A stretch of 64,000 nucleotides of DNA, from positions 11,988-75,987 of the forward strand of contig JAIXSZ010000020.1 of assembly GCA_027484425.1 (NCBI GenBank). Direction: 5' to 3'. Position numbers and translations under genes: made by a program. This document shows, piece by piece, positions 1 through 63,721 of the stretch. The notes beneath the pieces were generated by a model. That model did no database searches and was not told where the DNA came from. It saw nothing but the letters and a program-made list of their open reading frames with translations. The DNA comes from Sphingobacteriales bacterium (GTDB lineage: Bacteria; Bacteroidota; Bacteroidia; Chitinophagales; Chitinophagaceae). Positions within the stretch are counted from its first letter, which is position 1. Each line of letters starts with the position of its first letter.

Positions 1-703
1 TTATATCGTACGATGGTGTCCAGCCCGCTGCCGGTACCAGATAACTGATTGTTATATCAGAGGTTACGGCTTCTTTCGAGTAGAACTTTACCAGCAACTG
101 CCCACCCGGCTGGTAGCCTTTTGCCTGCTCCTCCTCTAGTTGCAGTTCCAGCTTCGCTATCCGTTCATCTATTGCCACCTTCATCACCTCTAGTTTATTC
201 TTTGCCGTCAGGTAGCTGCCCATCTTACTGCTTACTAGCTCCAGCATCTTCGCCAGTTCTGTTACAGTAAGCCCCGTATTGTAGCCGCTCACCTTACGGT
301 TGTCTTGCAGCACGGCTATTTGCTCTGTCAGCACAGCTATGTTTACGGCTACATCTGCCTTATTTTTCTTCTCAGTTTGTATGCTGTCTTTCAGTATTTT
401 AGCAATGGGCGAATATATTTCTTCCTCCAGATAGTTGTTCTGAAACACTGCCGACTGCACCACCGCACCATTACTGGCACGTATCACCAGGCTCGAGCTA
501 CTCACATTTCCTGCCACATTCGTCAGCATTATTTCGTTTTCGCCTTTGTCTAGTGCTATACTGGCTCGGCTGGTTAGTTCAGCACCCTTCAGAAACACCG
601 TAGCCGTTTCTATGTTCAGTCGTTGCTTTTTCTGCACCTTGGCATAGCCAGTTATAGTTACTAGCAGTATCATGCTCAGCACAGAGATGGATTTCAGTAG
701 CAT
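1..703 (-). CDS. Partial CDS running off the left edge of the window (its 3' end lies beyond position 1). Secreted coiled-coil protein, possibly DUF4139/DUF4140 (MuiA-like) family.
   Basis: Minus-strand frame is open from the ATG (complement of 701-703) to the window edge. Signal-peptide-like N-terminus MLLKSISVLSMILLVTITGYA followed by long coiled-coil stretches. The family assignment is from recalled sequence features only. Confidence 0.4.
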   Translation of the reverse strand, partial: MLLKSISVLSMILLVTITGYAKVQKKQRLNIETATVFLKGAELTSRASIALDKGENEIMLTNVAGNVSSSSLVIRASNGAVVQSAVFQNNYLEEEIYSPIAKILKDSIQTEKKNKADVAVNIAVLTEQIAVLQDNRKVSGYNTGLTVTELAKMLELVSSKMGSYLTAKNKLEVMKVAIDERIAKLELQLEEEQAKGYQPGGQLLVKFYSKEAVTSDITISYLVPAAGWTPSYDI

Positions 704-888
704 ATTTTTCTGTTTTAGGTAAGTAATAAGTGCGCCATTTGCGCTATTAGGTAAATGTACCAAAATATGCTTTGTTCCTTATGTAATCAATTTGCAACCT
801 TTTATCACTAAGTTCATCCGCCTACTGATAACTTACATTTTTCATTGACACATAAAATTTCCTTCCTAAAACCGTTAACTTTGTTGAC

Positions 889-1092
889 ATGAATTCAGCA
901 GAAAAAGAGAAAATCCTAAAAGACATCGAAAAGGGAATCAAGGAGTTTGATTGGATGCAATCTGGCAAGTTGAAATCTCCAAATTTCAATATTGTTTTGC
1001 AAGAACTGAGAACCGAAATAAATAAAGGATGGGACCCACCTGCCAGCAAGCGAAACGTTCAAGATATTATAGATTCAAAAGCTAATAATTAG
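889..1092 (+). CDS. Small hypothetical protein (67 aa)
   Basis: ATG-started ORF in an AT-rich region, helical and charged, no recognisable family. It is the first gene of a same-strand run of small ORFs. Confidence 0.3.
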   Translation: MNSAEKEKILKDIEKGIKEFDWMQSGKLKSPNFNIVLQELRTEINKGWDPPASKRNVQDIIDSKANN

Positions 1093-1172
1093 CCATTAGG
1101 TAGAGTCATTTCATCTTAGTCAGCTAATCTACAATTTCCTTAAGAGAACTGCAAATACCCACAAGTGTAAAT

Positions 1173-1664
1173 ATGGCAAATTGTTTTTGGTCACTTTTAA
1201 TGTTTTTATTTCTTATTGGATGTAGAAGTAGCAATAAATTTGTATCCTTCAACACCTATGTTACTTATACCCAAGGCAAAGAGCAGAAAGTGAGATACAC
1301 AGCAAGAATACCTAAAGGCTTCACAGCTTTTAAAATAGAAGCAGGTGGTGAATATGGCACTGACAAAGCATTTCGTTATCGGGATTCATCCATTATATAC
1401 ATCTCAGATTATCAGCTTTGCGATTTGAACTATGAAAATGTTCAAAAAGCTGGATTGTGGTCGAAGAGATTTACTTATACTAAAATATCTGTGAAATCAA
1501 TTTGCGACACATTAACGTTAGAAGGAATTGACGGCAATGGTTTGTATTGGAAAGAAGTTTTTAGAGGTAAAATTTGTATTGGCTATAGCAAAGTTAACGA
1601 AAGCAATAAAAACTCTTTTGATAAAGCAATAGAGTCTTTTAAATGTCGACACAGGTTGTGGTGA
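1173..1664 (+). CDS. Hypothetical lipoprotein (163 aa)
   Basis: N-terminal signal peptide with a lipobox-like LIGC (MANCFWSLLMFLFLIGCRSS). No family recognised. Confidence 0.5.
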   Translation: MANCFWSLLMFLFLIGCRSSNKFVSFNTYVTYTQGKEQKVRYTARIPKGFTAFKIEAGGEYGTDKAFRYRDSSIIYISDYQLCDLNYENVQKAGLWSKRFTYTKISVKSICDTLTLEGIDGNGLYWKEVFRGKICIGYSKVNESNKNSFDKAIESFKCRHRLW

Positions 1665-1719
1665 AAAAATAAAGTAAGTCCATTGGAGGTTTGCATAATT
1701 TCACAAGCAGATAATCACT

Positions 1720-2547
1720 ATGAGCAGAAATGAATGGACTACAGAAAAATTAATCTCCCGCCTTCTCACTAATAAGTCTGAGAAAACTTACTGGAATAAC
1801 ATTAGAGTTTTACGTAGTAGACCCACCATAGAAGTCTTAAACAGTTCTATAGAATTAACGCACCGTAGTGACGCAAAAGCCAGAAGAATCGGCATTGATG
1901 TTTTGGCTCAATTAGGTACCCCACCAAGGCCATTTTATGACCAAAGCAATAAATGTTTTTTTGAACTCTTGAATATAGAGAACGACCCAAAAGTATTAAT
2001 GTCTTTATTTTATGCCATTGGTCATAACAACGAAAAACTAAGTAATATACAAATAGAAAAGCTTTGCGAATTTTTTGACTCCCCAAACGAACTAGTTATT
2101 GAAGGATTAGTTCATGCATTATTAGGTGTAGACAAACCAAAAGCAATTGATGCGCTGATTAAACTTTCTACGCACAAATTATCTCATATCAGAGACTGGG
2201 CAACTTTCGGTTTAGGGTCTCTTGTAGAAAGAGAAAATAAAAAAATAAGAGTTGCATTGTGCAACAGGGTAAACGACAAACATAAAGACACAAAAGCTGA
2301 AGCTATCCTTGGTCTTGCCTTACGCAATGATTCTGGCATTGTAGACATTATACATCGAGAAGTGCTCACCGAAGAGTATGATACTATGTTGTTAGAAGCC
2401 ATTATTGCAATTAATGGCATTGATCTTTTACCAGTTTTAGAGCATCATTTAGCCAAAGTGCGAAACAATCAAGAAATTAATCCTACTTGGCTTAGTGGCC
2501 TCAAAAACTGTATATTGGAATTGCGTAAGAAAGCAACTAGTGAATAG
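1720..2547 (+). CDS. HEAT / PBS-lyase-like repeat protein (275 aa)
   Basis: Repeated ~30-aa helical units (ARRIGIDVLAQLG, VIEGLVHALLG, IRDWATFGLG, AILGLAL) typical of HEAT_2 repeats. It starts 55 bp after the preceding ORF on the same strand. Confidence 0.5.
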   Translation: MSRNEWTTEKLISRLLTNKSEKTYWNNIRVLRSRPTIEVLNSSIELTHRSDAKARRIGIDVLAQLGTPPRPFYDQSNKCFFELLNIENDPKVLMSLFYAIGHNNEKLSNIQIEKLCEFFDSPNELVIEGLVHALLGVDKPKAIDALIKLSTHKLSHIRDWATFGLGSLVERENKKIRVALCNRVNDKHKDTKAEAILGLALRNDSGIVDIIHREVLTEEYDTMLLEAIIAINGIDLLPVLEHHLAKVRNNQEINPTWLSGLKNCILELRKKATSE

Positions 2548-2703
2548 TTGTAATCTTGTCACTCTGCCGGGTAGAATCCTTTTTACTGGTGGCTTTTTTG
2601 TTCGATAATTCCCACTTTGCTTCATTAGCATTATGTTTGTATTTAATGTCATTATGATAAGTCCTATTTTTACATACATTAAGGCTGTTTAACCAAACCG
2701 GAT

Positions 2704-3231
2704 ATGGAAACAAGAATATTCTATTATTCTAAAGGCAGTAGCACGTTCTATTTTACTGCAATTGTCTTAGTAGCAGGATTGTCACTTTGGGCTCTTCTCT
2801 CTGATGACGTAACAATCGGCAAAAGGATATTTGCAGGGATTTTGCTACCAGGGTCCCTTTACATGGCTTATAGGAATTTCAAAAACTCTATCAAACCAGC
2901 ATATAAGAAAAAACCTGCGCTGATAATGGATGAAAAAGGTGTCTATATTGATGATATGCAGATAACAATATCATGGGATAACATTAGCAGCGTAAAGATG
3001 GATCGAGTTGGGAGACAAGGAGATTGGATATTCTTGTACATAATAAATAAGCACGCCATTAGCTACCAATTAAACAGAGATTTCAGTAGCGACTACATTA
3101 ATATTATTCCTTTTGATTATGCTGATGGTTGGGCTATTTTCGATGCACTTAAAGCATTCTGTGGTAAATACAGGCCTAGTGAAGTACTATTCAGCGGATA
3201 CAAACCCGAAACTTGGCCATCTGAGGGTTGA
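2704..3231 (+). CDS. Hypothetical membrane protein (175 aa), 2 TM plus a PH-like soluble domain
   Basis: Two hydrophobic helices near the N-terminus (FYFTAIVLVAGLSLWALL, IFAGILLPGSLYMAY), followed by a basic linker and a globular C-terminal domain. Confidence 0.45.
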   Translation: METRIFYYSKGSSTFYFTAIVLVAGLSLWALLSDDVTIGKRIFAGILLPGSLYMAYRNFKNSIKPAYKKKPALIMDEKGVYIDDMQITISWDNISSVKMDRVGRQGDWIFLYIINKHAISYQLNRDFSSDYINIIPFDYADGWAIFDALKAFCGKYRPSEVLFSGYKPETWPSEG

Positions 3232-3360
3232 ACTTTTTGTGTTTATAATCTTATGTCCCCGTTCTTCCAGTTCCGCCGTTGTCGGTGTTCCTCACCAACA
3301 ACGCTCGAGCAGGACAGATAACACTCAGATAAGACTAGTATCCATTGTCCGATAGCTGCC

Positions 3361-3433
3361 TCAAGTTGTTCCGAAGGGTCAACTGGAACTGCAAATAAAA
3401 ATCGTTCTCCCGAACGCATTCATTTGCCTGTAG
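3361..3433. repeat. Dispersed intergenic repeat, copy A (diverged, 5'-truncated)
   Basis: The core ...GTTCCGAAGGGTCAACTGGAACTGCAAATAAAAATCGTTCTCCCGAACGC... matches copies at 4441-4520 and 6481-6565. Confidence 0.6.
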
Positions 3434-3639
3434 CTAAATGAGTGCACCTTTCTCACTGGATTTTGTTTGTAGCCTAGCATTGTGTATTGGCTACCTTTTG
3501 CCCGCTATTTCCCCCAAAAACAGTTTGTAATTATTTCTCTCACCGGCTTCCAGTCTAGACACTGTGCCTTTGCTAACTAGTACCTCACACAATGAAGTCA
3601 GCTCGTAAATTCCAAACCCATCCTATCACTACTTCATCG

Positions 3640-4164
3640 TTACTTACTCACAGCTAATCTTTCAGCAAAAGCAGTAAATTCCTCACTTGCCCTATCTTTG
3701 TTTATGTTGTGTATTGACGTTAAGTACCCCATAAATGTATGTAGCACACTGCCATCCATTTGAGGTAAATCTACTTTTACTCTATTATCCAAGATTAATG
3801 CTGAGACAGTAGTCAAATTAAGCCATGTATTGAAGATTTTATTTCTGCCATTTTGTTTATTATCCACATAGTCACAATGATATAATAGAACTACCCCCGA
3901 GCCACGCTCTTCTACAAAATCAATCACTATTTTAGCTATTGTTACTCCTATCAAAGGATCTTTGTCCCAGTTTTTAGACTTGAGAACCCTATTAAACCCA
4001 AAACCATAGCCTTGTGTAAACAATCCTGGATACTCAGATAGGTATTTAACATACTGGTATGGGTCGAAGTAAACCGAGTACAATGAACCGTTATGAGTAA
4101 GAAAAGAATAAGAAATGATGTCTTCGTTATCTTCTTCCTGTATGTATGAATAAAAATCTTCCAA
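3640..4164 (-). CDS. Hypothetical protein (174 aa), TTG start, translationally coupled to the upstream 45-aa ORF
   Basis: The ORF begins with TTG immediately after the TAA of the preceding small ORF (GGT TAA TTG). No family recognised. Aromatic-rich, contains HCDY and GFGFN motifs. Confidence 0.45.
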   Translation of the reverse strand: MEDFYSYIQEEDNEDIISYSFLTHNGSLYSVYFDPYQYVKYLSEYPGLFTQGYGFGFNRVLKSKNWDKDPLIGVTIAKIVIDFVEERGSGVVLLYHCDYVDNKQNGRNKIFNTWLNLTTVSALILDNRVKVDLPQMDGSVLHTFMGYLTSIHNINKDRASEEFTAFAERLAVSK

Positions 4165-4302
4165 TTAACCTTTATGTTTAGTTAATCGTTTCAAAGCCTT
4201 TTCTTCCAACATTTTTTTTATTTCAGCTTTTCTTTTTGCTATGTCTTCAAAGAAAGAAATAGCCTCTTTATTGCTTGGCGATATAACTATCTTTTTTAGC
4301 AT
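4165..4302 (-). CDS. Small hypothetical protein (45 aa), first gene of a coupled two-gene cassette
   Basis: Hand-translated: MLKKIVISPSNKEAISFFEDIAKRKAEIKKMLEEKALKRLTKHKG. ATG is the complement of 4300-4302, and the TAA abuts the TTG start of the 174-aa ORF. A TAATTTTG (-7-like) motif lies ~40 bp upstream on the minus strand. Confidence 0.3.
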   Translation of the reverse strand: MLKKIVISPSNKEAISFFEDIAKRKAEIKKMLEEKALKRLTKHKG

Positions 4303-4440
4303 TTCGAATGATTTTAATTTCTATTTATACAGCAAAATTACTCCTTTTTATCATAATATTTGAATCCCGCTCGGAGTATTATAACAAGTTTGTAATAAAG
4401 CTTGGCGTAAGTTTTCTCTACCTCACACACTTTGCCGTTG

Positions 4441-4520
4441 GTTGTATCGTTGTTCCAGTTGTTCCGCAGGGTCAACTGAAACTACCAATAAAAATCGTTC
4501 ACCCGTACGCCTTCAATTTC
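4441..4520. repeat. Dispersed intergenic repeat, copy B
   Basis: ATCGTTGTTCCAGTTGTTCCGCAGGGTCAACTGAAACTACCAATAAAAATCGTTCACCCGTACGCCTTCAATTTCTTGCAGCTTAAT. Near-identical to copy C. Confidence 0.7.
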
Positions 4521-4679
4521 TTGCAGCTTAATAATTTCTTCCATCAGTCATTCCCACTCTATCCTTGCTTAACGCTCAGGCCTGATTACTGCAAGTGTCG
4601 ATTACGAAAACCCTATCCACATAGGTTTTTTCCACCTAGCACCAATAAAGAATTCAGCGAAAATGGCTGATTAGGCTGC

Positions 4680-6365
4680 TTATTCTTTTAGAATTTTGAA
4701 TACATAAGTTTGGTTACTGGTATAAATGCGGCAAATGTGGATGCCGTTGGGTAAATCCTTTATCGGTACATGTGGCGTACGCCCGTTAAGCGTATAGGTG
4801 CCAATTACCTGTCCGCCAAGGCTTATAATATCAAGCCTGGTATCTATAAATGCATAGTTGGCGGCAATAGTGATTTCGCTAGAGGCAGGGTTGGGATAAA
4901 CAAGTAGTTCTTTCAGATCATTATTCACATTCGTTACTGACGTATGATGGTCTACAGGCGGCAGCGTATCAGGCACACAACCCGGAAGGTTATACCTATA
5001 TGCCCCAACAAAAAATACCTGACTTATACCATCTGTTACCACAACACTGTCGAAACCAAGTTTTATTGAACAAACGCTGGCATCAGAAACCACATACACG
5101 CTTCCTTTATTATCGACAGCTACAGAAGAACCATCGTCGCCACCAGTATTGATAAATACGGTATCTATTAGATTGCCCGCTGTATCAAAATGAGCGAGGT
5201 ACATTGGGTTTGAGGGCGATCCGATAGAATGCCCACCCTGACCGCACATCCAAATATCATCACAATCATCTACCTCTAACTGGCAAAGTGAAAATATAGT
5301 GTTATCTTCAATGGTCTTTGCCCATCGTACACGGCCTGATGTATCGTATTTCGCAACAAACATTCTGCGCCTTCCAAATGAATAAGGTAAAGTAATTGTG
5401 TCAAGCGTAAGGTTGTTCACATAATTGCCTCCGATGTACAAATTTCCTTCTGGGTCAGCAGAACAACTGACTGCTCTTGTAGCAAAAGTATCCGCTACTA
5501 TTCCTTGTGCCCATAGTGGATTCCCGTCCTTGTCTGTTTTGGCTATAAAAAAGTATGTTTCAACACCCGAAGTTGGGTTGTAAATTGTAGATGCACCAAA
5601 TGAAAATGAATCTGACGTGTATCCACCCATCATATATATCATGCTGTCATCAGTCAATGCCAACTCGTAAATTTCATCATAAGTTCCATTACCCCCATAG
5701 CCCTTCGCCCAATGGTAGTTAAGTTCTGCGTCAGACTTGGCTACGAAAACATCTCCGCCGCCTAATGGAGTCGGAAGGGCAGAACTGCCCAACACCACGC
5801 CAGTACCATAAAGACCACCAATATACATCATTCCACTACTGTTTATCTTGATGCTGCGTGGAAATGCGCCAAAAGGGAATTTTTTTACCCAAGCTACAAC
5901 GCCTGCAGATGAAACCTTTGCACAAAAGTAAAAATTAGTGGAAGGGGATGTAACCAAAAAGCCCCCAAAATCAAAACTACCGCTTGAACATTCCCCTAAC
6001 AAATAAACATTTCCACGATTGTCAGCTTCTAAGTCTAAAATTGAGGTGCGACCATCTAGCATAGGACGAACCCACTTGTAGTTTCCCAAACTATCAGTAC
6101 AAACAATAACACTTTTGAATCCAATACCAGATGCATCTTCTACTGTATCGGTACCAAAAATTGCTATCAATGGGCTTACAGGTGTGGTTGCGTTCTGCCA
6201 TAACCATGTCGAAGCATATACATTTCCAAAGGTATCAGCTTCCACAACGCCACCTTCAGTACTTGCTCCTGGGCAATTACCGACTGATGCAAACCTCCAA
6301 CCTTGTGCGAATGAATTACTTACAAATAGAATTAAAATTACGAATGTAATAAAAGGACTTTTCAT
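4680..6365 (-). CDS. Secreted SBBP beta-propeller-repeat protein with T9SS type-A C-terminal sorting domain (561 aa)
   Basis: Signal peptide MKSPFITFVILILFVSNSFAQ. Repeated GNVY..G/SBBP-like motifs. C-terminus LVYPNPASSEITIA...GIHICRIYTSNQTYVFKILKE is typical of the Por/T9SS CTD. Confidence 0.75.
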   Translation of the reverse strand: MKSPFITFVILILFVSNSFAQGWRFASVGNCPGASTEGGVVEADTFGNVYASTWLWQNATTPVSPLIAIFGTDTVEDASGIGFKSVIVCTDSLGNYKWVRPMLDGRTSILDLEADNRGNVYLLGECSSGSFDFGGFLVTSPSTNFYFCAKVSSAGVVAWVKKFPFGAFPRSIKINSSGMMYIGGLYGTGVVLGSSALPTPLGGGDVFVAKSDAELNYHWAKGYGGNGTYDEIYELALTDDSMIYMMGGYTSDSFSFGASTIYNPTSGVETYFFIAKTDKDGNPLWAQGIVADTFATRAVSCSADPEGNLYIGGNYVNNLTLDTITLPYSFGRRRMFVAKYDTSGRVRWAKTIEDNTIFSLCQLEVDDCDDIWMCGQGGHSIGSPSNPMYLAHFDTAGNLIDTVFINTGGDDGSSVAVDNKGSVYVVSDASVCSIKLGFDSVVVTDGISQVFFVGAYRYNLPGCVPDTLPPVDHHTSVTNVNNDLKELLVYPNPASSEITIAANYAFIDTRLDIISLGGQVIGTYTLNGRTPHVPIKDLPNGIHICRIYTSNQTYVFKILKE

Positions 6366-6480
6366 AAAAGGTATATTTTACTGTTAAAAATGGGTGTACT
6401 TATCAAAGTTACCTTCATTGACGTGGTGTATAGGCAAACCGTTAGTATAAATAGAAAAATTTTCGCAGGCTATCGTACCA

Positions 6481-6565
6481 AACTCGATCGTTGTTCCATT
6501 TGTTCCGCAGGGTCAACCAGAACTACCAATAAAAATCGTTCTCCCGAACGCCTTCACTTTCTACC
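6481..6565. repeat. Dispersed intergenic repeat, copy C
   Basis: ATCGTTGTTCCATTTGTTCCGCAGGGTCAACCAGAACTACCAATAAAAATCGTTCTCCCGAACGCCTTCACTTTCTACCAGCTTAAT. Confidence 0.7.
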
Positions 6566-6896
6566 AGCTTAATCATTTCCGGCGCTTTGGGTGCTCCTCA
6601 ACATCGAATAGCACTTGACAGTATAATAGTAGGAACAAACATATCCTTCACTTACCAAAATTCCACATCTCAAAATGTGGATATCTTATTCTCTGCTACT
6701 ACCCATAATGGCTGACATTGGCGCACTTTTTGCGGCAGCAGTAGAGCGTAGTCTATTTATCCATTACCCTATTAAACCCACAATCATTATGTCAGCATGT
6801 TACATCCCCAATTCGCTACAACAAACATTACCCCCTATACCATCGTGCCCAACCTCACCACATAAAACCAACCTGCAAACACCCACTATCAGCAAA

Positions 6897-7915
6897 AATG
6901 AATAGCATTGATAATCAACTACTTACACCCAAAAACACATGAAATGACCGGAAACAAACCGGAAAAACCAGAAATGAACAATAAACCAAATATGACAACA
7001 AAACCACAGCATCCTGCGACCCGCATCCTGTAAATCCTAAAATTCTGTAAATCCTGATTCAGACAAAAACACCATCATACCGGAAAAAATGAATAGTATT
7101 GATAATCAACGAGTTACACCAAAAAACACATGAAATGACCGGAAACAAACCGGAAAAACTAGAAATGAACAATAAACCAAATATGACGACAAAACGACAG
7201 CACCTACACATATTTAGCAAATCGGCAGCAGGAACACCGCAACAAACTGTCAACTTATTTCGGGACTATTCAAACGGCCCACATCCTGTAAATCTTAAAA
7301 TCCTGTAAATCCTGATTCAGACAAAAACCCACCGGAAAATGCATGCACACCGGAAAAGTGAATAGCATTGATAATCAACTACTTACACCCCAAAACCCAT
7401 GAAAACACCGGCAAATAACCGGCAAAACTGGAAATGAACAATAAACTAAATATGAAAGCAAAACCACAGCATCCTGCGACCCGCATCCTGTAAATCCTAA
7501 AATCCTGTAAATCCTGATTCAGACTAAAACACAATACAAACCGGAAAAATGAATAGTATTGATAATCAACAACTTAAGTACCAAAACACATGAAAACACC
7601 GGAAACAAACCAGAAAAACCTATCAGTAGCCATAGCTATTTAGCGACGGCTACAGAAATGAACAATAAACCAAATATGACGACAAAACGACAGCACCTAC
7701 ACATATTTAGCAAATCGGCAGCAGGAACACCGCAACAAACTATCAACTTATTTCGGGACTATTCAAACGGCCCACATCCTGTAAATCCTGATTCAGACAA
7801 AACCCACCACAAAATGCATGCACACCGGAAAAATGAATAGCATTGATAATCAACAACTTAAGTGCCAAAACACATGAAAACACCGGAAACAAACCGGAAA
7901 TACATATTTGCTTCC
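6897..7915. repeat. Complex tandem repeat array, about 4.4 units. Short (~190 bp) and long (~270-285 bp) unit variants alternate.
   Basis: Units start near 6897, 7089, 7359, 7549 and 7833 (partial). Each begins (A)ATGAATAG(C/T)ATTGATAATCAAC and ends ACCGGAAAA. The short variant carries CCACAGCATCCTGCGACCCGCATCCTG, the long variant CGACAGCACCTACACATATTTAGCAAATCGGCAGCAGGAACACCGCAACAAACT. ORFs 7099..7308 and 7559..7840 are translations of the repeat. Confidence 0.85.
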
Positions 7916-7925
7916 CCGCTTATTG

Positions 7926-8402
7926 TTATGTCACTCTCGAGTGCAGATAATTGCAGCAATATATCAACAGCAGCAAAAACTCAGGCTTATTCATCTCTGG
8001 GTAGTTGTCGTCCGTTTCTATTTGGTAGTGAAAGCTGAACTCAGCTATTTTAAAATGTTGATGCACCATAGCCGTTTCATGCTCATGTTCATTAATCACC
8101 CCAAAGTGATAATTGAAAAAACCCACACGCTTAAAGGCATACGAGCTGCCATTTTCCAGCTCTATTATTATTTGACCTTTCCAGTTAAATCTTAATGATG
8201 CCTCTTTACGTTCACCATCAAAAACCGAAACACTGGTATGAAACGCACCCTGAGGATTCAACTGATAGATTTTGCCTTCTGGCAATTGTATTTCTGCCTT
8301 TATCGAAAACCAGGAAGTATAATCCAGTTTGCCCAGCGATGTGCCGCTTTCATCCTGCAATTCAAAAAAACTATTCCTCGTCCCTTTAGCCGAAAACTTC
8401 AT
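7926..8402 (-). CDS. Hypothetical protein (158 aa)
   Basis: ORF with ATG start and no recognisable family. Its 3' end abuts the tandem array. Confidence 0.4.
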   Translation of the reverse strand: MKFSAKGTRNSFFELQDESGTSLGKLDYTSWFSIKAEIQLPEGKIYQLNPQGAFHTSVSVFDGERKEASLRFNWKGQIIIELENGSSYAFKRVGFFNYHFGVINEHEHETAMVHQHFKIAEFSFHYQIETDDNYPEMNKPEFLLLLIYCCNYLHSRVT

Positions 8403-20852: not shown

Positions 20853-21248
<396 letters not shown>

Positions 21249-61675: not shown

Positions 61676-62764
61676 TTACACTTGTGGAATACCATAGGTA
61701 TCATACCAGTAACTATCTGGTATGTTTACTATACCCGCTAGATCTTTATCTATTGCCATTCGTTTGTGCAAGTATTCAATGTCTGTATCTTTTGCAAATA
61801 CAAACCTTCCTCCCGCCACCTCATATCCATACGACTGTAGTATGCGCATAAAAGCTGGTGTATTGAGCATAGCAGTAGTGTAGGCTATGTCTGCCTTAGT
61901 TATTTCATACTGCTGTTCCTGATGTATTTTGCTTTGTGCATAGCCCGCACTACGGCTGCTGTTGGTGGTTTCTGTGTTGCCCAGCACAGTTACAGATATT
62001 TCTTCGTTCAGCGCCTTTATAAACGATAACTGCAATCCACCATCACTATTGGCTTGTTTGCCATCTTTTATTTCGAAGTCTGCCTGTCGGGGTATCATCA
62101 TAGACAGCGAGCTACCACTATCTTCCAACACCTTTCTTAGTTCTTCCTTAGTTTGCTCGTCGTACGAGTCATATTTTATCACACGCACTGGCTGCCCAAA
62201 TAGTTCTATAAATTGAGCCCAATCGGCCAATCCACTTCTTTTATACAGGCAGTATGGTGCACACCGCAGCAACAGGCCCATATCGCCTGGAGTCTCCATT
62301 ACCCACACATTGGGCAGGTCTGCATAGTTTATACCTTCCATGCCGTTTTGTTCGTAGGCTATCACTCTACTTTCTGGTTTTATATGCTTTCTTGGTATGG
62401 TATTGCATATCAACTCCGTACCCGGCAAAAACTCCAATCCCGACAAACCCCACAGTAAGGTTTCCAGTATAGTTTTTATTACCTCTCTGAATGCCATTGA
62501 AGCTATCAGGCCGTCTAGCTTGTGTACCTTTTGTCCAGCTTTTTCAAAGTATATTTCTTTATTCAGCACAGCATTTATTTTCTTAGCTACCACACCCGTC
62601 AGGTGTCCATCCAGTAGTATGTCTTCATACAAGTCATACAGCCTTGTTCTGTTAGGGTGGTGCATTGACTCTGCTGCGCTTAGTGCATTGCGCCAAGTGT
62701 TTATATCCTTCCTATTTCGGTCAATTGACCTTACGTTCAATTCATTCAATATTATCTTCTCCAT
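61676..62764 (-). CDS. Hypothetical protein (362 aa), possible phage structural protein (portal/DUF935-like or sheath-like, unresolved)
   Basis: No confident family. Assigned to the phage-like module from gene context downstream of the gp36-like gene. Confidence 0.35.
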   Translation of the reverse strand: MEKIILNELNVRSIDRNRKDINTWRNALSAAESMHHPNRTRLYDLYEDILLDGHLTGVVAKKINAVLNKEIYFEKAGQKVHKLDGLIASMAFREVIKTILETLLWGLSGLEFLPGTELICNTIPRKHIKPESRVIAYEQNGMEGINYADLPNVWVMETPGDMGLLLRCAPYCLYKRSGLADWAQFIELFGQPVRVIKYDSYDEQTKEELRKVLEDSGSSLSMMIPRQADFEIKDGKQANSDGGLQLSFIKALNEEISVTVLGNTETTNSSRSAGYAQSKIHQEQQYEITKADIAYTTAMLNTPAFMRILQSYGYEVAGGRFVFAKDTDIEYLHKRMAIDKDLAGIVNIPDSYWYDTYGIPQV

Positions 62765-62843
62765 ATGTTACGATTAATTTACCTTTATTTAAAGCTGATT
62801 CCCTTATACTTCCAAATAGAATATTATTATCTTTACGCACCCC

Positions 62844-63251
62844 TTGTTTCTATTGATATCAATTTTACCCATTGCAATTATTATAACAATGAGACGAATA
62901 CTAACAGAGTTTTACAGCCTTGTTTACAAGACTACAGGCAATAAGTTGTTGGCTTATGGTATTGGGTTAATAGTCTTGGCTCTGTTTAACTGCATTATAG
63001 TAAAAGGCCTGGCAATGCTCATACAAGACTGGGTAGGCTTTGCTGGTATGATCCTTATCTTGTTCAGGTTTCCTATTTACTTTATTACTTTCTTGTTATC
63101 GCTCGGTGTAGCCTTTTGGTTTACACCAAACATCCAAACGCTAACTCGCGATGCAAAAAAGAATAACAAATACCTCACTATAATACTCTACAGTCTTTTT
63201 GCCATTGTTCTTTTTGCCTACATGCAATTGGGAGAAGTTTTATTTTCCTGA
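62844..63251 (+). CDS. Hypothetical small membrane protein (135 aa, about 4 TM)
   Basis: Highly hydrophobic ORF on the opposite strand, between the phage-like genes. Confidence 0.3.
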   Translation: MFLLISILPIAIIITMRRILTEFYSLVYKTTGNKLLAYGIGLIVLALFNCIIVKGLAMLIQDWVGFAGMILILFRFPIYFITFLLSLGVAFWFTPNIQTLTRDAKKNNKYLTIILYSLFAIVLFAYMQLGEVLFS

Positions 63252-63283
63252 TATCCTCCTTAATTTGAAGTGCTAACTACTAA

Positions 63284-63721
63284 CTAGTAATGGTTGCTTC
63301 TTTTAGGGTTACTATTCCAGTTTATAGCGTTGCTTTCCGGCAGTGATGTATTGGTCTCCGCCTCCTTGTATGGCCATCCATCTGGTTGCAAAGCGCCTGT
63401 TTTTATGCTTTTCAGCACCTCTACTGCGTCTGTGTAAGCTACTCTACTGGTGCTGTGCTCTACTCCTGTATTGTTGAGGCGCACTAAGTGCCAGCAAGCC
63501 ACGTCTTTTACTATACTTTTCAGGTACTCATCTTGTACCACAGGTGGAGTTGCTGGTGTACCAAATAGTTGAGTAAGGTTGTAGCGGCTTAGGTACATCT
63601 TACATTCTTGTTCGGCGGTAGCAATCGCTATTTCTGCTATCGCAATATCACCTCTTGTTATCTCTGTTATTACTTCTGCATACAGCTTAGTTTCTAGCTC
63701 TGCAACGGTTATTATAGGCAT
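63284..63721 (-). CDS. DUF1320 / Mu gp36-like phage protein (head-tail connector family)
   Basis: The pattern ITVAELETKLYAEVI...IAIATAEQECKMYLSRYNL...LKSIVKDVACWHLVRL matches the recalled gp36/DUF1320 family motif (A..A..E...YL.RY.L ... IA.Y.L). Confidence 0.5.
   Translation of the reverse strand: MPIITVAELETKLYAEVITEITRGDIAIAEIAIATAEQECKMYLSRYNLTQLFGTPATPPVVQDEYLKSIVKDVACWHLVRLNNTGVEHSTSRVAYTDAVEVLKSIKTGALQPDGWPYKEAETNTSLPESNAINWNSNPKRSNHY

Follow-up and report, generated by a model that had tools for sequence, protein, structure and literature searches.

The intergenic repeat M3 belongs to a previously undescribed modular non-coding repeat family of Flavipsychrobacter, and comparison of related loci supports the conclusion that its copies mark joints between swappable accessory-gene cassettes. 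For how these joints arose and act, the best reading is a repeat of the REP/BIME/BOX kind, to which we give roughly an even chance; three other explanations were weighed and are considered below.

Results

A larger non-coding element ends in M3 on its 3′ side

A repeat search of the 64-kb stretch of DNA analyzed here (the window) identified three 93-nt direct copies of M3 (repeat family D4) at 3353-3445, 4446-4538 and 6487-6579, the first and last of which are 75% and 89% identical, respectively, to the reference copy at 4446-4538. The full copies, all in the same orientation, span 3353-3450, 4441-4542 and 6478-6584, and a profile built from 20 family members extended them to 3357-3450, 4441-4542 and 6478-6584; scanning the window with this profile found no further copies. 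The degenerate core AGGGTCAACNNNAACTNCNAATAAAAATCGTTC matched exactly the three M3 sites in 64 kb (0.00 expected from 100 shuffles), which bears out the three-copy dispersed repeat described in an earlier note on this DNA. All three copies lie within 3.2 kb, and the remaining 60 kb of the window, mostly housekeeping sequence, contains none. That note's count of three stands but overlooked a probable fourth copy, an internally deleted remnant recognized by a 28-nt match to an M5-end fragment of locus L024 and by direct reading of the sequence (Table 1).

Copy C had been described as an isolated 85-bp unit, a view that we revise: the copy closes, on the 3′ side, the non-coding element LNC_rep(n)-LNC_a-M5-M3, which occupies 6478-7903. 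The same module order and orientation were found in seven loci, namely the window and six other Flavipsychrobacter contigs (L002, L003, L004, L006, L007 and L009), and units homologous to LNC_rep occur in all of the latter except L004. In addition to M3, the element comprises 0.4-1.4 kb of conserved non-coding sequence. In the window LNC_rep starts 22 nt past the stop codon of a co-oriented 158-aa gene (7926-8402), and in the window, L003, L006 and L007 this platform starts 10-150 nt past the stop codon of a co-oriented upstream gene. On the 3′ side of the full unit, M3-only copies follow in the same direction, set between gene cassettes; H2-only and M5-start-only forms also occur. The extra 5′ module of copy A recurs in three other loci: in L005 and L024 it precedes M3, and in L009 it follows one.

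The family sample comprises 24 M3 copies on 10 contigs from ∼4 genomes, and was obtained with an exact-match pattern search that favors conserved copies. One metagenome-assembled genome carries at least 11 copies on 5 contigs. All 19 copies in the seven multi-copy loci point one way, for which our own arithmetic gives a chance of ∼2^-12 if orientation were random.

Table 1. Positions of M3 copies, associated modules and cassettes in the window.
Feature	Position	Strand	Remarks
M3 copy C	6478..6584, core 6487-6579	-	'Platform' copy, continuous with M5 upstream
Copy C hairpin H1	6550-6537	-	CGTTC-GGGA-GAACG, then ATTTTTATT
Copy C hairpin H2	6523-6493	-	
M3 copy B	4441..4542	-	M3-only copy
Copy B hairpin H1	4509-4496	-	Weakened (CGTAC…GTGAACG)
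Copy B hairpin H2	4482-4452	-	
M3 copy A	3353..3450	-	Diverged terminal copy
Copy A hairpin H1	3416-3403	-	
Copy A hairpin H2	3389-3359	-	3′ arm degraded
Extra 5′ module on copy A	3451..3600, limits approximate	-	…GTGTGAGGTACTAGTTAGC…GCTAGGCTACAAAC…CCAGTGAGAAAGG
Probable fourth M3 remnant, internally deleted	3257..3298	-	M5 3′ end TTGGTGAGGAACACCGACAACGGCGG fused to M3 3′ end AACTGGAAGAACGGGG
M5 module	6580..6700	-	Middle part varies between loci
M5 first hairpin	6681-6662	-	ATCCACAT-TTTGAG-ATGTGGA plus T-run; terminator-like on both strands
LNC_a module	6702..6863	-	Block near-invariant in six loci: …CTGACATAATGAT…TAGACTACGCTCTACTGATGCCGCAAAAAGTGCGCCAA…
LNC_rep	6864..7903	-	∼2.2 copies of a 460-nt composite unit (repeat families D1, D2, D5, D6, D7)
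Cassette 1	4680..6365	-	T9SS-sorted SBBP beta-propeller protein, 561 aa
Cassette 1 -7 motif	6411-6404	-	Bacteroidetes-type, TAACTTTG
Cassette 2	3640..4302	-	Coupled 45-aa + 174-aa (DUF6169) gene pair
Cassette 2 -7 motif	4340-4333	-	TAATTTTG
Far edge of hypervariable region	889..904	+	Conserved ATGAATTCAGCAGAAA just before homology stop at 904

M3 folds into two hairpins with conserved loops

M3 contains two stem-loops, a terminator-like H1 followed by a T-run and then H2, a 31-nt hairpin with a 10-bp stem and an 11-nt loop. A consensus copy folds far better than shuffled sequences (z of -3.4 to -3.9), and H2 has three pairs with compensatory changes, a number that 16 of 500 shuffles also reached; the covariation signal is weak, owing to the high similarity of the copies. 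Relative to the family consensus the window copies have decayed, and H2 of copy C, with wobbles and mismatches, folds with a z of only ∼0. When three copies were folded as single-stranded DNA on both strands, two separate local hairpins formed and the ends stayed unpaired. A diverged H2-like hairpin, GCAGTTCCAGAT-AACAT-ATCTGGAAC, adjoins a toxin-antitoxin pair in a distant Flavipsychrobacter (L023).

Several of these properties would suit an element that acts only locally, in transcription or as RNA (as a bidirectional terminator, an mRNA-stabilizing 3′ hairpin, or a small or cis-regulatory RNA), and that was copied with duplicated genes and has no part in cassette movement. H1, with a G+C-containing stem and a T-run after a gene, is a predicted intrinsic terminator and was flagged as terminator-like on both strands in copies A and C (the stem in copy B is weakened). 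Nearly every M3 copy lies 6-190 nt past the stop codon of a gene on one strand or the other, and H2 contains G-U wobbles. We nevertheless consider this explanation very unlikely. The wobbles favor neither strand (five fit the minus sense and three the plus sense), and an Rfam search gave zero matches either at the gathering score or at E≤5. The genes flanking different copies are unrelated, and thus the repeat was not copied along with genes. Distances from M3 to downstream start codons range from 121 to about 500 nt, and M3 keeps its fixed modular order with the other conserved non-coding sequence of the element. Furthermore, both hairpin loops and the linker are conserved about as much as the stems, which is needed neither by a plain terminator nor by plain homology and hints that a protein or an RNA may recognize them specifically. 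A simple terminator role, which the earlier note had set against its own cassette-boundary reading, would fit one hairpin, terminator-like in both directions, but would leave the conserved loops and the modular architecture unexplained.

The 3′ end of M3 is fixed and the 5′ ends are ragged

In the 20-copy alignment the 3′ end of M3 is fixed at …CAACGAGG (also written …GGAACAACGAGG), 7-8 nt past a strong hairpin, and at least five different 5′ limits were found. Very different sequences follow the fixed end, including a truncated CRISPR repeat in L001; neither a conserved flanking target nucleotide after the 3′ end nor a target-site duplication in the flanks was found in this alignment. A fixed 3′ end with such diverse neighbors resembles a defined site of cleavage or joining more than it does the outcome of homologous exchange. 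A search of 3200-8000 for terminal inverted repeats (TIRs) returned only H2 matching itself. M3 doublets and partial duplications are present, with tandem partial 3′ ends in L001 (31-nt unit, 2.1 copies) and also in L009.

One-ended or rolling-circle capture (IS91/ISCR, Helitron) could leave such a pattern if an element replicating from or to this end had M3, with its subterminal hairpin and short tail, as 3′ terminus. Read-through past the terminus would take flanking genes up to the next terminus, giving co-oriented termini and variable 5′ extents. The position of the fixed end relative to the hairpin, the ragged 5′ ends, the strict co-orientation of copies, the tandem partial 3′ ends and the lack of TIRs are all consistent with this mechanism. 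However, no Rep/Y2 or other HUH transposase with M5/M3 ends was found in any locus examined, the 3′ flank lacks a conserved target nucleotide, and the model does not predict arrays that share one non-coding platform yet stand at different core genes. We consequently assign rolling-circle capture a very low probability.

M3 copies bracket cassettes that differ between related genomes

The earlier note placed the copies in intergenic spaces, which is correct, but the flanking genes are on the minus strand, so that in gene orientation each copy is 3′ of one cassette and 5′ of the next, 121-143 nt before the next start codon in the window. Copy B lies 138 nt 3′ of the SBBP stop codon and 143 nt 5′ of the 45-aa start codon, and copy A is 3′ of the DUF6169 gene and, on its other side, faces the 3′ end of a plus-strand gene (2704-3231). 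By sequence reading, TAnnTTTG, which we take to be the Bacteroidetes promoter -7 motif, is present between M3 and the start codon in four of four co-oriented cassettes.

The claim that each cassette has a repeat copy on both sides gained support from L009, the orthologous locus of a related species. Its DUF4139/MuiA flank is 92% identical to that of the window over 904 bp, compared with 89% for M3 and 73% for the adjacent LNC_a. In this locus the same repeats bracket VapBC and HigBA rather than the 45-aa/DUF6169 pair and the T9SS SBBP gene, which supports the cassette-boundary reading. The DUF6169 cassette recurs at 91% identity in another lineage (L024), where the downstream repeat is kept and the upstream junction differs; homology to the L024 cassette starts at 4359. 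A toxin-tip-plus-partner segment that is 95% identical between L002 and L004 ends 48 nt from an M3, and short-read contigs with the window's cassette proteins begin and end inside M3, in keeping with a multi-copy repeat. Homology among four lineages (the window, L009, L018 and L019) stops at 904.

These observations would also fit an integron-like system. In such a system, LNC-M5-M3 would be the analogue of attI, each cassette would end in its own M3 as the analogue of attC, and circular cassettes would enter and leave at one fixed point, at or close to the 3′ end of M3, through a recombinase encoded elsewhere in the genome. Consistent with this, seven loci have a platform with co-oriented M3 copies behind it, the cassettes are short, with 1-2 genes in 0.8-2 kb, and toxin-antitoxin pairs (VapBC and HigBA) are among them, cassette content differs at the orthologous locus, and the DUF6169 cassette retains its downstream M3 in two lineages with different upstream junctions. 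The sharp, constant 3′ boundary, the conservation of loops as well as stems and the degeneracy of the terminal copy (copy A) point the same way. On the other hand, M3 has no R″/R′ core sites and no single end-pairing hairpin, its 5′ limits are ragged, and it forms doublets and partial duplications. About half of the genes adjoining M3 run the other way, some 'cassettes' are toxin-like segments of several genes, and the cassettes have their own promoter motifs. No tyrosine or serine recombinase was found next to any of the seven platforms or among the window ORFs tested, and classical integrons are very rare in Bacteroidetes (PMC9024848). Integron-like capture is therefore unlikely in our judgment. 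The fuller proposal built on it is similarly doubtful: a Chitinophagaceae (Bacteroidota) capture system that would work like an integron yet share none of its parts, with a 0.4-1.4-kb platform after core genes at several sites, a 90-nt M3 closing each cassette, strand exchange at the M3 3′ end and the recombinase encoded elsewhere.

The earlier note's observation that the window lacks an integrase or transposase agrees with our search, which found neither among the window ORFs tested. The only transposase found near an array was a RAYT at 5367-5912 of L003 (NF047646, 99.9 bits), and it is flanked by GACGTAGTCGGAGACTACGCC-type hairpins, a REP different from M3.

Discussion

The reading that we hold at about even chance places M3, as the conserved 3′ module, in a lineage-specific, TIR-less modular family, closest in kind to REP/BIME clusters and pneumococcal BOX. 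In accessory islands M3 would terminate or insulate transcription and would also offer a joint for recombination. We infer that the family spread to many loci, and it may have done so as a non-autonomous element mobilized in trans. The likeliest agent would be a hairpin-recognizing enzyme (HUH/Y1-type or similar), given hairpin ends, polar copies and the lack of both TIRs and target duplications. Each resident M3 is predicted to halt or insulate transcription between adjacent cassettes. The co-oriented copies would provide portable homology for cassette gain, loss or replacement, whether through exchange, unequal or homologous, or through an M3-bearing circle that integrates. Several points stand against the REP/BIME/BOX-like reading: the loci examined contain no candidate mobilizing enzyme for M3, and REP/REPIN families are typically inverted doublets with head-to-tail pairs rare (PMC3733652), whereas every M3 copy is head-to-tail. 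The conserved loops and linker and the fixed 3′ end beside diverse sequence also count against it, as do the weak covariation and the small sample biased toward conserved copies.

Even if M3 repeats are only REP/BOX-like debris, they account for the short-read break-up of this lineage's accessory islands, which hold toxin-antitoxin pairs, T9SS cargo, toxin-like arrays and a CRISPR end, and for cassette turnover at fixed chromosomal sites; they are also a ready marker for locating accessory islands. Should a dedicated enzyme act at the fixed end of M3, the family would instead represent another cassette platform, the second to have evolved independently, in a phylum with almost no classical integrons, of interest for research on gene-cassette mobility and site-specific DNA insertion.

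Comparison with known systems

The earlier note offered three labels for the repeat: attC-like, MITE-like and REP-like. M3 arrays do resemble integron attC arrays and CALINs, such as the Vibrio cholerae repeats (PMC9024848), in being one-direction arrays of near-identical repeats, ∼90-120 nt long, set between small cassettes, with toxin-antitoxin pairs among the latter. In both, content varies between relatives, a distinct non-coding region lies at one end of the array, and short-read assemblies break at the repeats. M3 differs in lacking core sites, end pairing and a nearby IntI, and in having cassettes with their own promoters in either orientation and ragged 5′ limits. The attC label was rejected: RYYYAAC/GTTRRRY is absent from both strands of 20 copies, the sole GTTG/CAAC pair is internal to H2 and unfit in order and position, and two local hairpins replace the one end-pairing hairpin. 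A complete integron (IntI, attI and Pc) was likewise rejected, as no recombinase domain was found in the ORFs by the seven platforms or the window ORFs tested. Nor is M3 a TIR-type MITE, since it has neither TIRs nor a target-site duplication and its 5′ ends are ragged.

REP-like proved the nearest of the three labels, with reservations. Like REP/BIME and REPIN-RAYT elements of E. coli and Pseudomonas (PMC3733652), M3 consists of short extragenic stem-loops mostly 3′ of genes, its clusters may contain units repeated together with stretches of the adjoining DNA, TIRs and target duplications are lacking, and a role in termination or mRNA stability is plausible. The size of H2 is within the range reported for GTAG-tagged REPs (stem of 5-13 bp, loop of 2-20 nt; PMC3733652), and one M3-bearing genome has a RAYT gene. 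In contrast to the mostly inverted REP dimers, M3 is only head-to-tail, and REPIN inverted doublets were rejected with 19 of 19 copies in multi-copy loci direct. G(C/T)AG lies 5′ of H2 in 14-15 of 20 copies, but these columns are the least conserved of M3. The L003 RAYT was rejected as cognate, being beside a different REP. Also unlike REPs, M3 is a 90-nt two-hairpin unit in fixed larger modules, and its copies are clustered in accessory islands.

The ends of IS200/IS605 elements resemble each other. M3 is like HUH derivatives (IS200/IS605 PATEs, IS91/ISCR) in that it has no TIRs, is polar and strictly co-oriented, and has subterminal hairpins, set in by ∼18-19 nt at the left end (M5) and by 7-8 nt at the right end (M3); it is unlike them in that the two end hairpins are unrelated and no autonomous partner or conserved target motif was found. 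A PATE derived from IS200/IS605 was rejected on the grounds that the M5 hairpin (ATCCACAT…ATGTGGAT) is unrelated to H2 and that the loci examined hold no partner element. Group II intron domains V-VI were also rejected, with no Rfam Intron_gpII match (gathering score, E≤5) and an H1 base of AGU, not AGC.

BOX elements of Streptococcus pneumoniae are modular and intergenic (boxA-boxB(n)-boxC), scattered singly and without an encoded transposase. As in BIME and BOX elements, the M3 family has a fixed module order, a variable number of internal modules and shortened forms, and it shares with BOX stable stem-loops and the lack of a transposase inside. It has no sequence relation to BOX and belongs to another phylum, and M3 forms co-oriented arrays that bracket cassettes behind a conserved platform.

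M3 copies lie at the junctions between exchanged cassettes

A repeat search of the window returned one family of three direct 93-nt copies of M3, a ~90-nt repeat made of two hairpins (H1 and H2). The likeness between these copies starts and stops sharply, and their flanking sequences are unrelated. A degenerate 33-nt M3 core matched three times in 64 kb, at these same copies, with 0 matches expected from 100 shuffles; the three repeat copies described in an earlier note do exist. A profile search of the remaining 60 kb of the window, which holds mostly housekeeping genes, gave no M3 copy; an additional shared module was found upstream of copy A. Because the neighbouring genes are on the minus strand, M3 is described in minus-strand orientation.

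Positions of the M3 element and of the cassette genes in the window
Feature	Position	Strand	Remark
Probable internally deleted M3 remnant	3257-3298
M3, copy A	3353-3445		75% identical to middle copy
DUF6169 gene	4164→3640	minus
45-aa gene	4302→4165	minus
M3, copy B	4446-4538		middle copy, reference (100%)
SBBP/T9SS gene	6365→4680	minus
M3, copy C	6487-6579		89% identical to middle copy
M5	6580-6700		opens with hairpin ATCCACAT-TTTGAG-ATGTGGA and a T-run
LNC_a	6702-6863		includes a nearly invariant block
LNC_rep	6864-7903		about 2.2 copies of a 460-nt composite

The same note held that the copies bound gene cassettes, and comparison with other genomes bore this out. A contig of an F. stenotrophus MAG (L009) is syntenic with the window start (92% identity over 904 bp in the region of the DUF4139/MuiA gene) and also carries, at the far side, the larger non-coding element described below. 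Between these landmarks, five M3 copies set apart VapBC and HigBA pairs in L009, whereas in the window three copies set apart the T9SS SBBP gene and the 45-aa/DUF6169 pair; cassettes therefore differ between relatives while M3 stays at their junctions. In four lineages (the window and contigs L009, L018 and L019) homology ends at one nucleotide, window 904. The first 16 nt of an ORF (ATGAATTCAGCAGAAA, window 889-904 and equivalents) and the region upstream are conserved, and the sequence beyond is unrelated in each. Because homology stops after these 16 nt, the far edge of the variable region is one exact nucleotide within a gene start.

In a contig from another sample (L024), the DUF6169 cassette is 91% identical and retains a copy-A-type M3 downstream; a different module lies upstream, and homology to the window begins 57 nt before the start codon. 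As a two-gene unit, the 45-aa/DUF6169 pair is conserved and turns up elsewhere in unrelated contexts; it may be a mobile module, of a toxin-antitoxin-like or another kind. Pairs of 45-aa and ~175-aa DUF6169 genes (window 3640-4302; contigs of P0129) are present in other bacteria, with neighbours such as a ParE pair and a TonB-type receptor.

At three further loci (L002, L004, L007), M3 separates paralogous large proteins with variable C-termini and small partner genes, and one such segment, 95% shared by two MAGs, ends 48 nt from an M3. These proteins (L002 289-4878, L007 118-6394, L004 3380-4548) are 631-644 aa long, with N-termini 95% alike and differing C-termini; downstream of their genes lie small genes and free-standing copies of their C-terminal region (shared motif G..DL.D.Q.LL…GH..AER). 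The large proteins had no Pfam or PADLOC match, and by analogy the arrays resemble polymorphic-toxin/immunity arrays. A defence island was also considered for the window and set aside, as PADLOC gave no meaningful match for the cassette and neighbouring proteins. In L001, M3 abuts the truncated terminal repeat of a type II-C CRISPR array. That locus (1-5475) encodes the cas9 C-terminus, cas1 and cas2 and holds a 47-nt repeat in about 23 copies; the final copy stops 7 nt short and runs straight into the 3′ end of an M3 bearing a 31-nt partial duplication. Short-read contigs with the window's cassette proteins start and stop inside M3, all of them breaking at repeats. By these sequence comparisons, M3 copies do mark cassette boundaries.

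M3 is part of a larger modular element

Profile searches of nine contigs and the window revealed that copy C runs upstream into three more modules, M5, LNC_a and LNC_rep. The resulting element, here called the platform, is modular and polar, with the order and orientation LNC_rep-LNC_a-M5-M3 found also in L002, L003, L004, L006, L007 and L009. Where its upstream edge is visible (window, L003, L006, L007), the platform begins 10-150 nt past the stop codon of a co-oriented gene, which in L007 is coaD. All M3-only copies lie downstream of a platform save one in L004, and H2-only, M5-start-only and tandem partial forms were also found. At the seven multi-copy loci, every M3 copy is co-oriented (19 of 19). 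GC skew across the window gave no information for relating this orientation to the replication strand. Alignment of LNC_a-M5-M3 from six loci gave two conserved islands with a variable stretch between them and little covariation.

LNC_rep is a non-coding stretch of ~1 kb with TTGATTATCAA palindromes, direct GGATTTACAGGAT repeats and TTTCCGG doublets. Its minus strand is G+T-rich (GC skew -0.19), and homologous units head M3 arrays in five further contigs. Within LNC_a, a block at 6702-6800 (…TAGACTACGCTCTACTGATGCCGCAAAAAGTGCGCCAA…) is nearly invariant in six loci and its surroundings are less conserved. A 1-nt indel argues against coding, and the block could serve the platform as a protein-binding or RNA element.

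The family was seeded by scanning one genome per species for an exact pattern, which gave nine contigs from three MAGs, all Flavipsychrobacter. In all, 24 M3 copies were sampled, on 10 contigs of about four genomes; because of this seeding, the sample is skewed toward conserved copies. Outside the genus, the M3 element had 0 matches in two metagenome scans, none or chance matches only in viral scans, and none by plasmid and phage BLAST. The more distant relatives L022 and L023 retain no synteny at the orthologous locus and yielded only a single diverged H2-like hairpin.

Folding of M3 and its placement relative to genes

Consensus, conservation and pairing were derived from a 20-copy alignment, which gave …ATTAAGCTGCTAGAAAGTGAAGG-CGTTC-GGGA-GAACG-ATTTTTATTGGCA-GTTCCAGTTG-ACCCTNCGGAA-CAACTGGAAC-AACGAGG. 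H1 has a 5-bp stem and a GNRA-type loop, with A/G·U pairs that lengthen it and a T-run behind it, and a consensus scan scored it as terminator-like on both strands; H2 has a 10-bp stem with an 11-nt loop. Loops and linker are conserved as much as the stems, and the wobble pairs favour neither strand, with five that fit the minus sense and three the plus sense. Folding and covariation had been proposed earlier as a check. A consensus copy is far more stably folded than shuffled sequence (z -3.4 to -3.9) and copy C does not (z about 0), which indicates that the window copies are somewhat decayed. Compensatory changes in three H2 pairs, in copies L004_4596 and L007_4534, give weak support (16 of 500 shuffles reach the same), because M3 copies are so alike.

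Several functional assignments were considered. A minus-strand peptide, …EGVRENDFYW*, can be read in copies B and C, but one codon varies between TGG, TAG, TTG and TCG from copy to copy and the reading frame does not hold; M3 is not coding, and a coding remnant was rejected. A small RNA or riboswitch is not supported, given no Rfam match to M3, inconsistent placement relative to genes and weak covariation. Each co-oriented cassette has a TAnnTTTG motif (TAACTTTG, TAATTTTG, TACCTTTG, TAAATTTG), which we take to be the Bacteroidetes-type promoter motif, between M3 and the start codon and none within M3; thus, M3 is not a promoter and the cassettes are not promoterless. In the window these motifs are at 6411-6404 and 4340-4333.

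Nearly every M3 copy lies 6-190 nt past some stop codon, and about half of the adjacent genes converge on M3 instead of following it, a placement that fits a two-way terminator or insulator. That M3 is a purely transcriptional element, with no part in cassette exchange, is very unlikely in our estimate.

A model for M3 spread

Between species, M3 is 89% identical versus 73% for neighbouring non-coding sequence. Its presence at eight or more unrelated loci would require past or present mobilising activity, and hairpin ends without TIRs or target duplications point to a structure-recognising enzyme in trans. We propose that M3 may have been spread by such an enzyme, that H1, and perhaps H2, would stop transcription between cassettes, and that co-oriented copies would be the joints at which cassettes are gained, lost and replaced. 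This reading as a whole has, in our judgement, an even chance of being correct. The 3′ end of M3 is constant (…CAACGAGG; …CAACGAT in the window) and its 5′ limit varies, with five or more positions seen in the 20-copy alignment. In our estimate, a rolling-circle or one-ended capture model is very unlikely.

Other features of the window

At 20853-21244, three tandem 105-nt units come after tRNA-Ala(GGC), each with the 3′ part of the tRNA (GAGGTGACCGGTTTGAAT…CTCCACAAAAATTG), a hairpin and a T-run; by analogy with integration sites, a tRNA 3′ half seems to have been duplicated serially. A Mu-type phage portal gene (PF06074, E 8.5e-65) and a Gp36-like protein at 61676-63721 belong to a Mu-like prophage or remnant that extends past the window end. 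A gene of the '23S rRNA-intervening-sequence protein' family (PF05635, 35138-35473) lies between genes that are presumably pntA and pntB (transhydrogenase).

Comparison with known elements

Of the element classes suggested earlier, attC-like and MITE-like identities were not upheld. M3 has no TIRs, it lacks R″/R′ sites, its ends do not pair, and no integrase was found among the ORFs tested in the window or those adjoining platforms. A site-specific, integron-like system would account for the fixed 3′ end and conserved loops of M3, but integrons are very rare in Bacteroidetes (PMC9024848), and we regard this alternative to the model above as unlikely.

Of the suggested identities, REP-like is the nearest. 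H2 is within the reported REP size range (PMC3733652), and G(C/T)AG often stands before it; however, this tag is the least conserved part of M3, and M3 copies are never inverted but all head-to-tail, an arrangement rare among REP dimers (PMC3733652). The only REP-associated tyrosine transposase (RAYT) found, in L003, is flanked by a REP that differs from M3. This RAYT (NF047646, 99.9 bits) lies between inverted double hairpins (GGCGTAGTCTCCGACTACGTC and GTAGTCAATCTCCAGATTGAC), the whole at 5290-5995. A single related REP directly follows higA within the L009 array (about 4020-4060), and this type is absent from the window. The RAYT-linked REP is a second repeat family in these islands, independent of M3.

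H1 has the geometry of group II intron D5 (8-bp lower helix, 1-nt bulge, 5-bp upper helix, GNRA loop), but a D5/D6 identity was rejected since H1 has AGU rather than AGC and no Rfam match. For IS200/IS605-type PATEs, the spacing of the end hairpins is suggestive, although the two end hairpins of the M3 element are unrelated to each other. The M3 element does share the modular architecture of BIME- and BOX-like elements.
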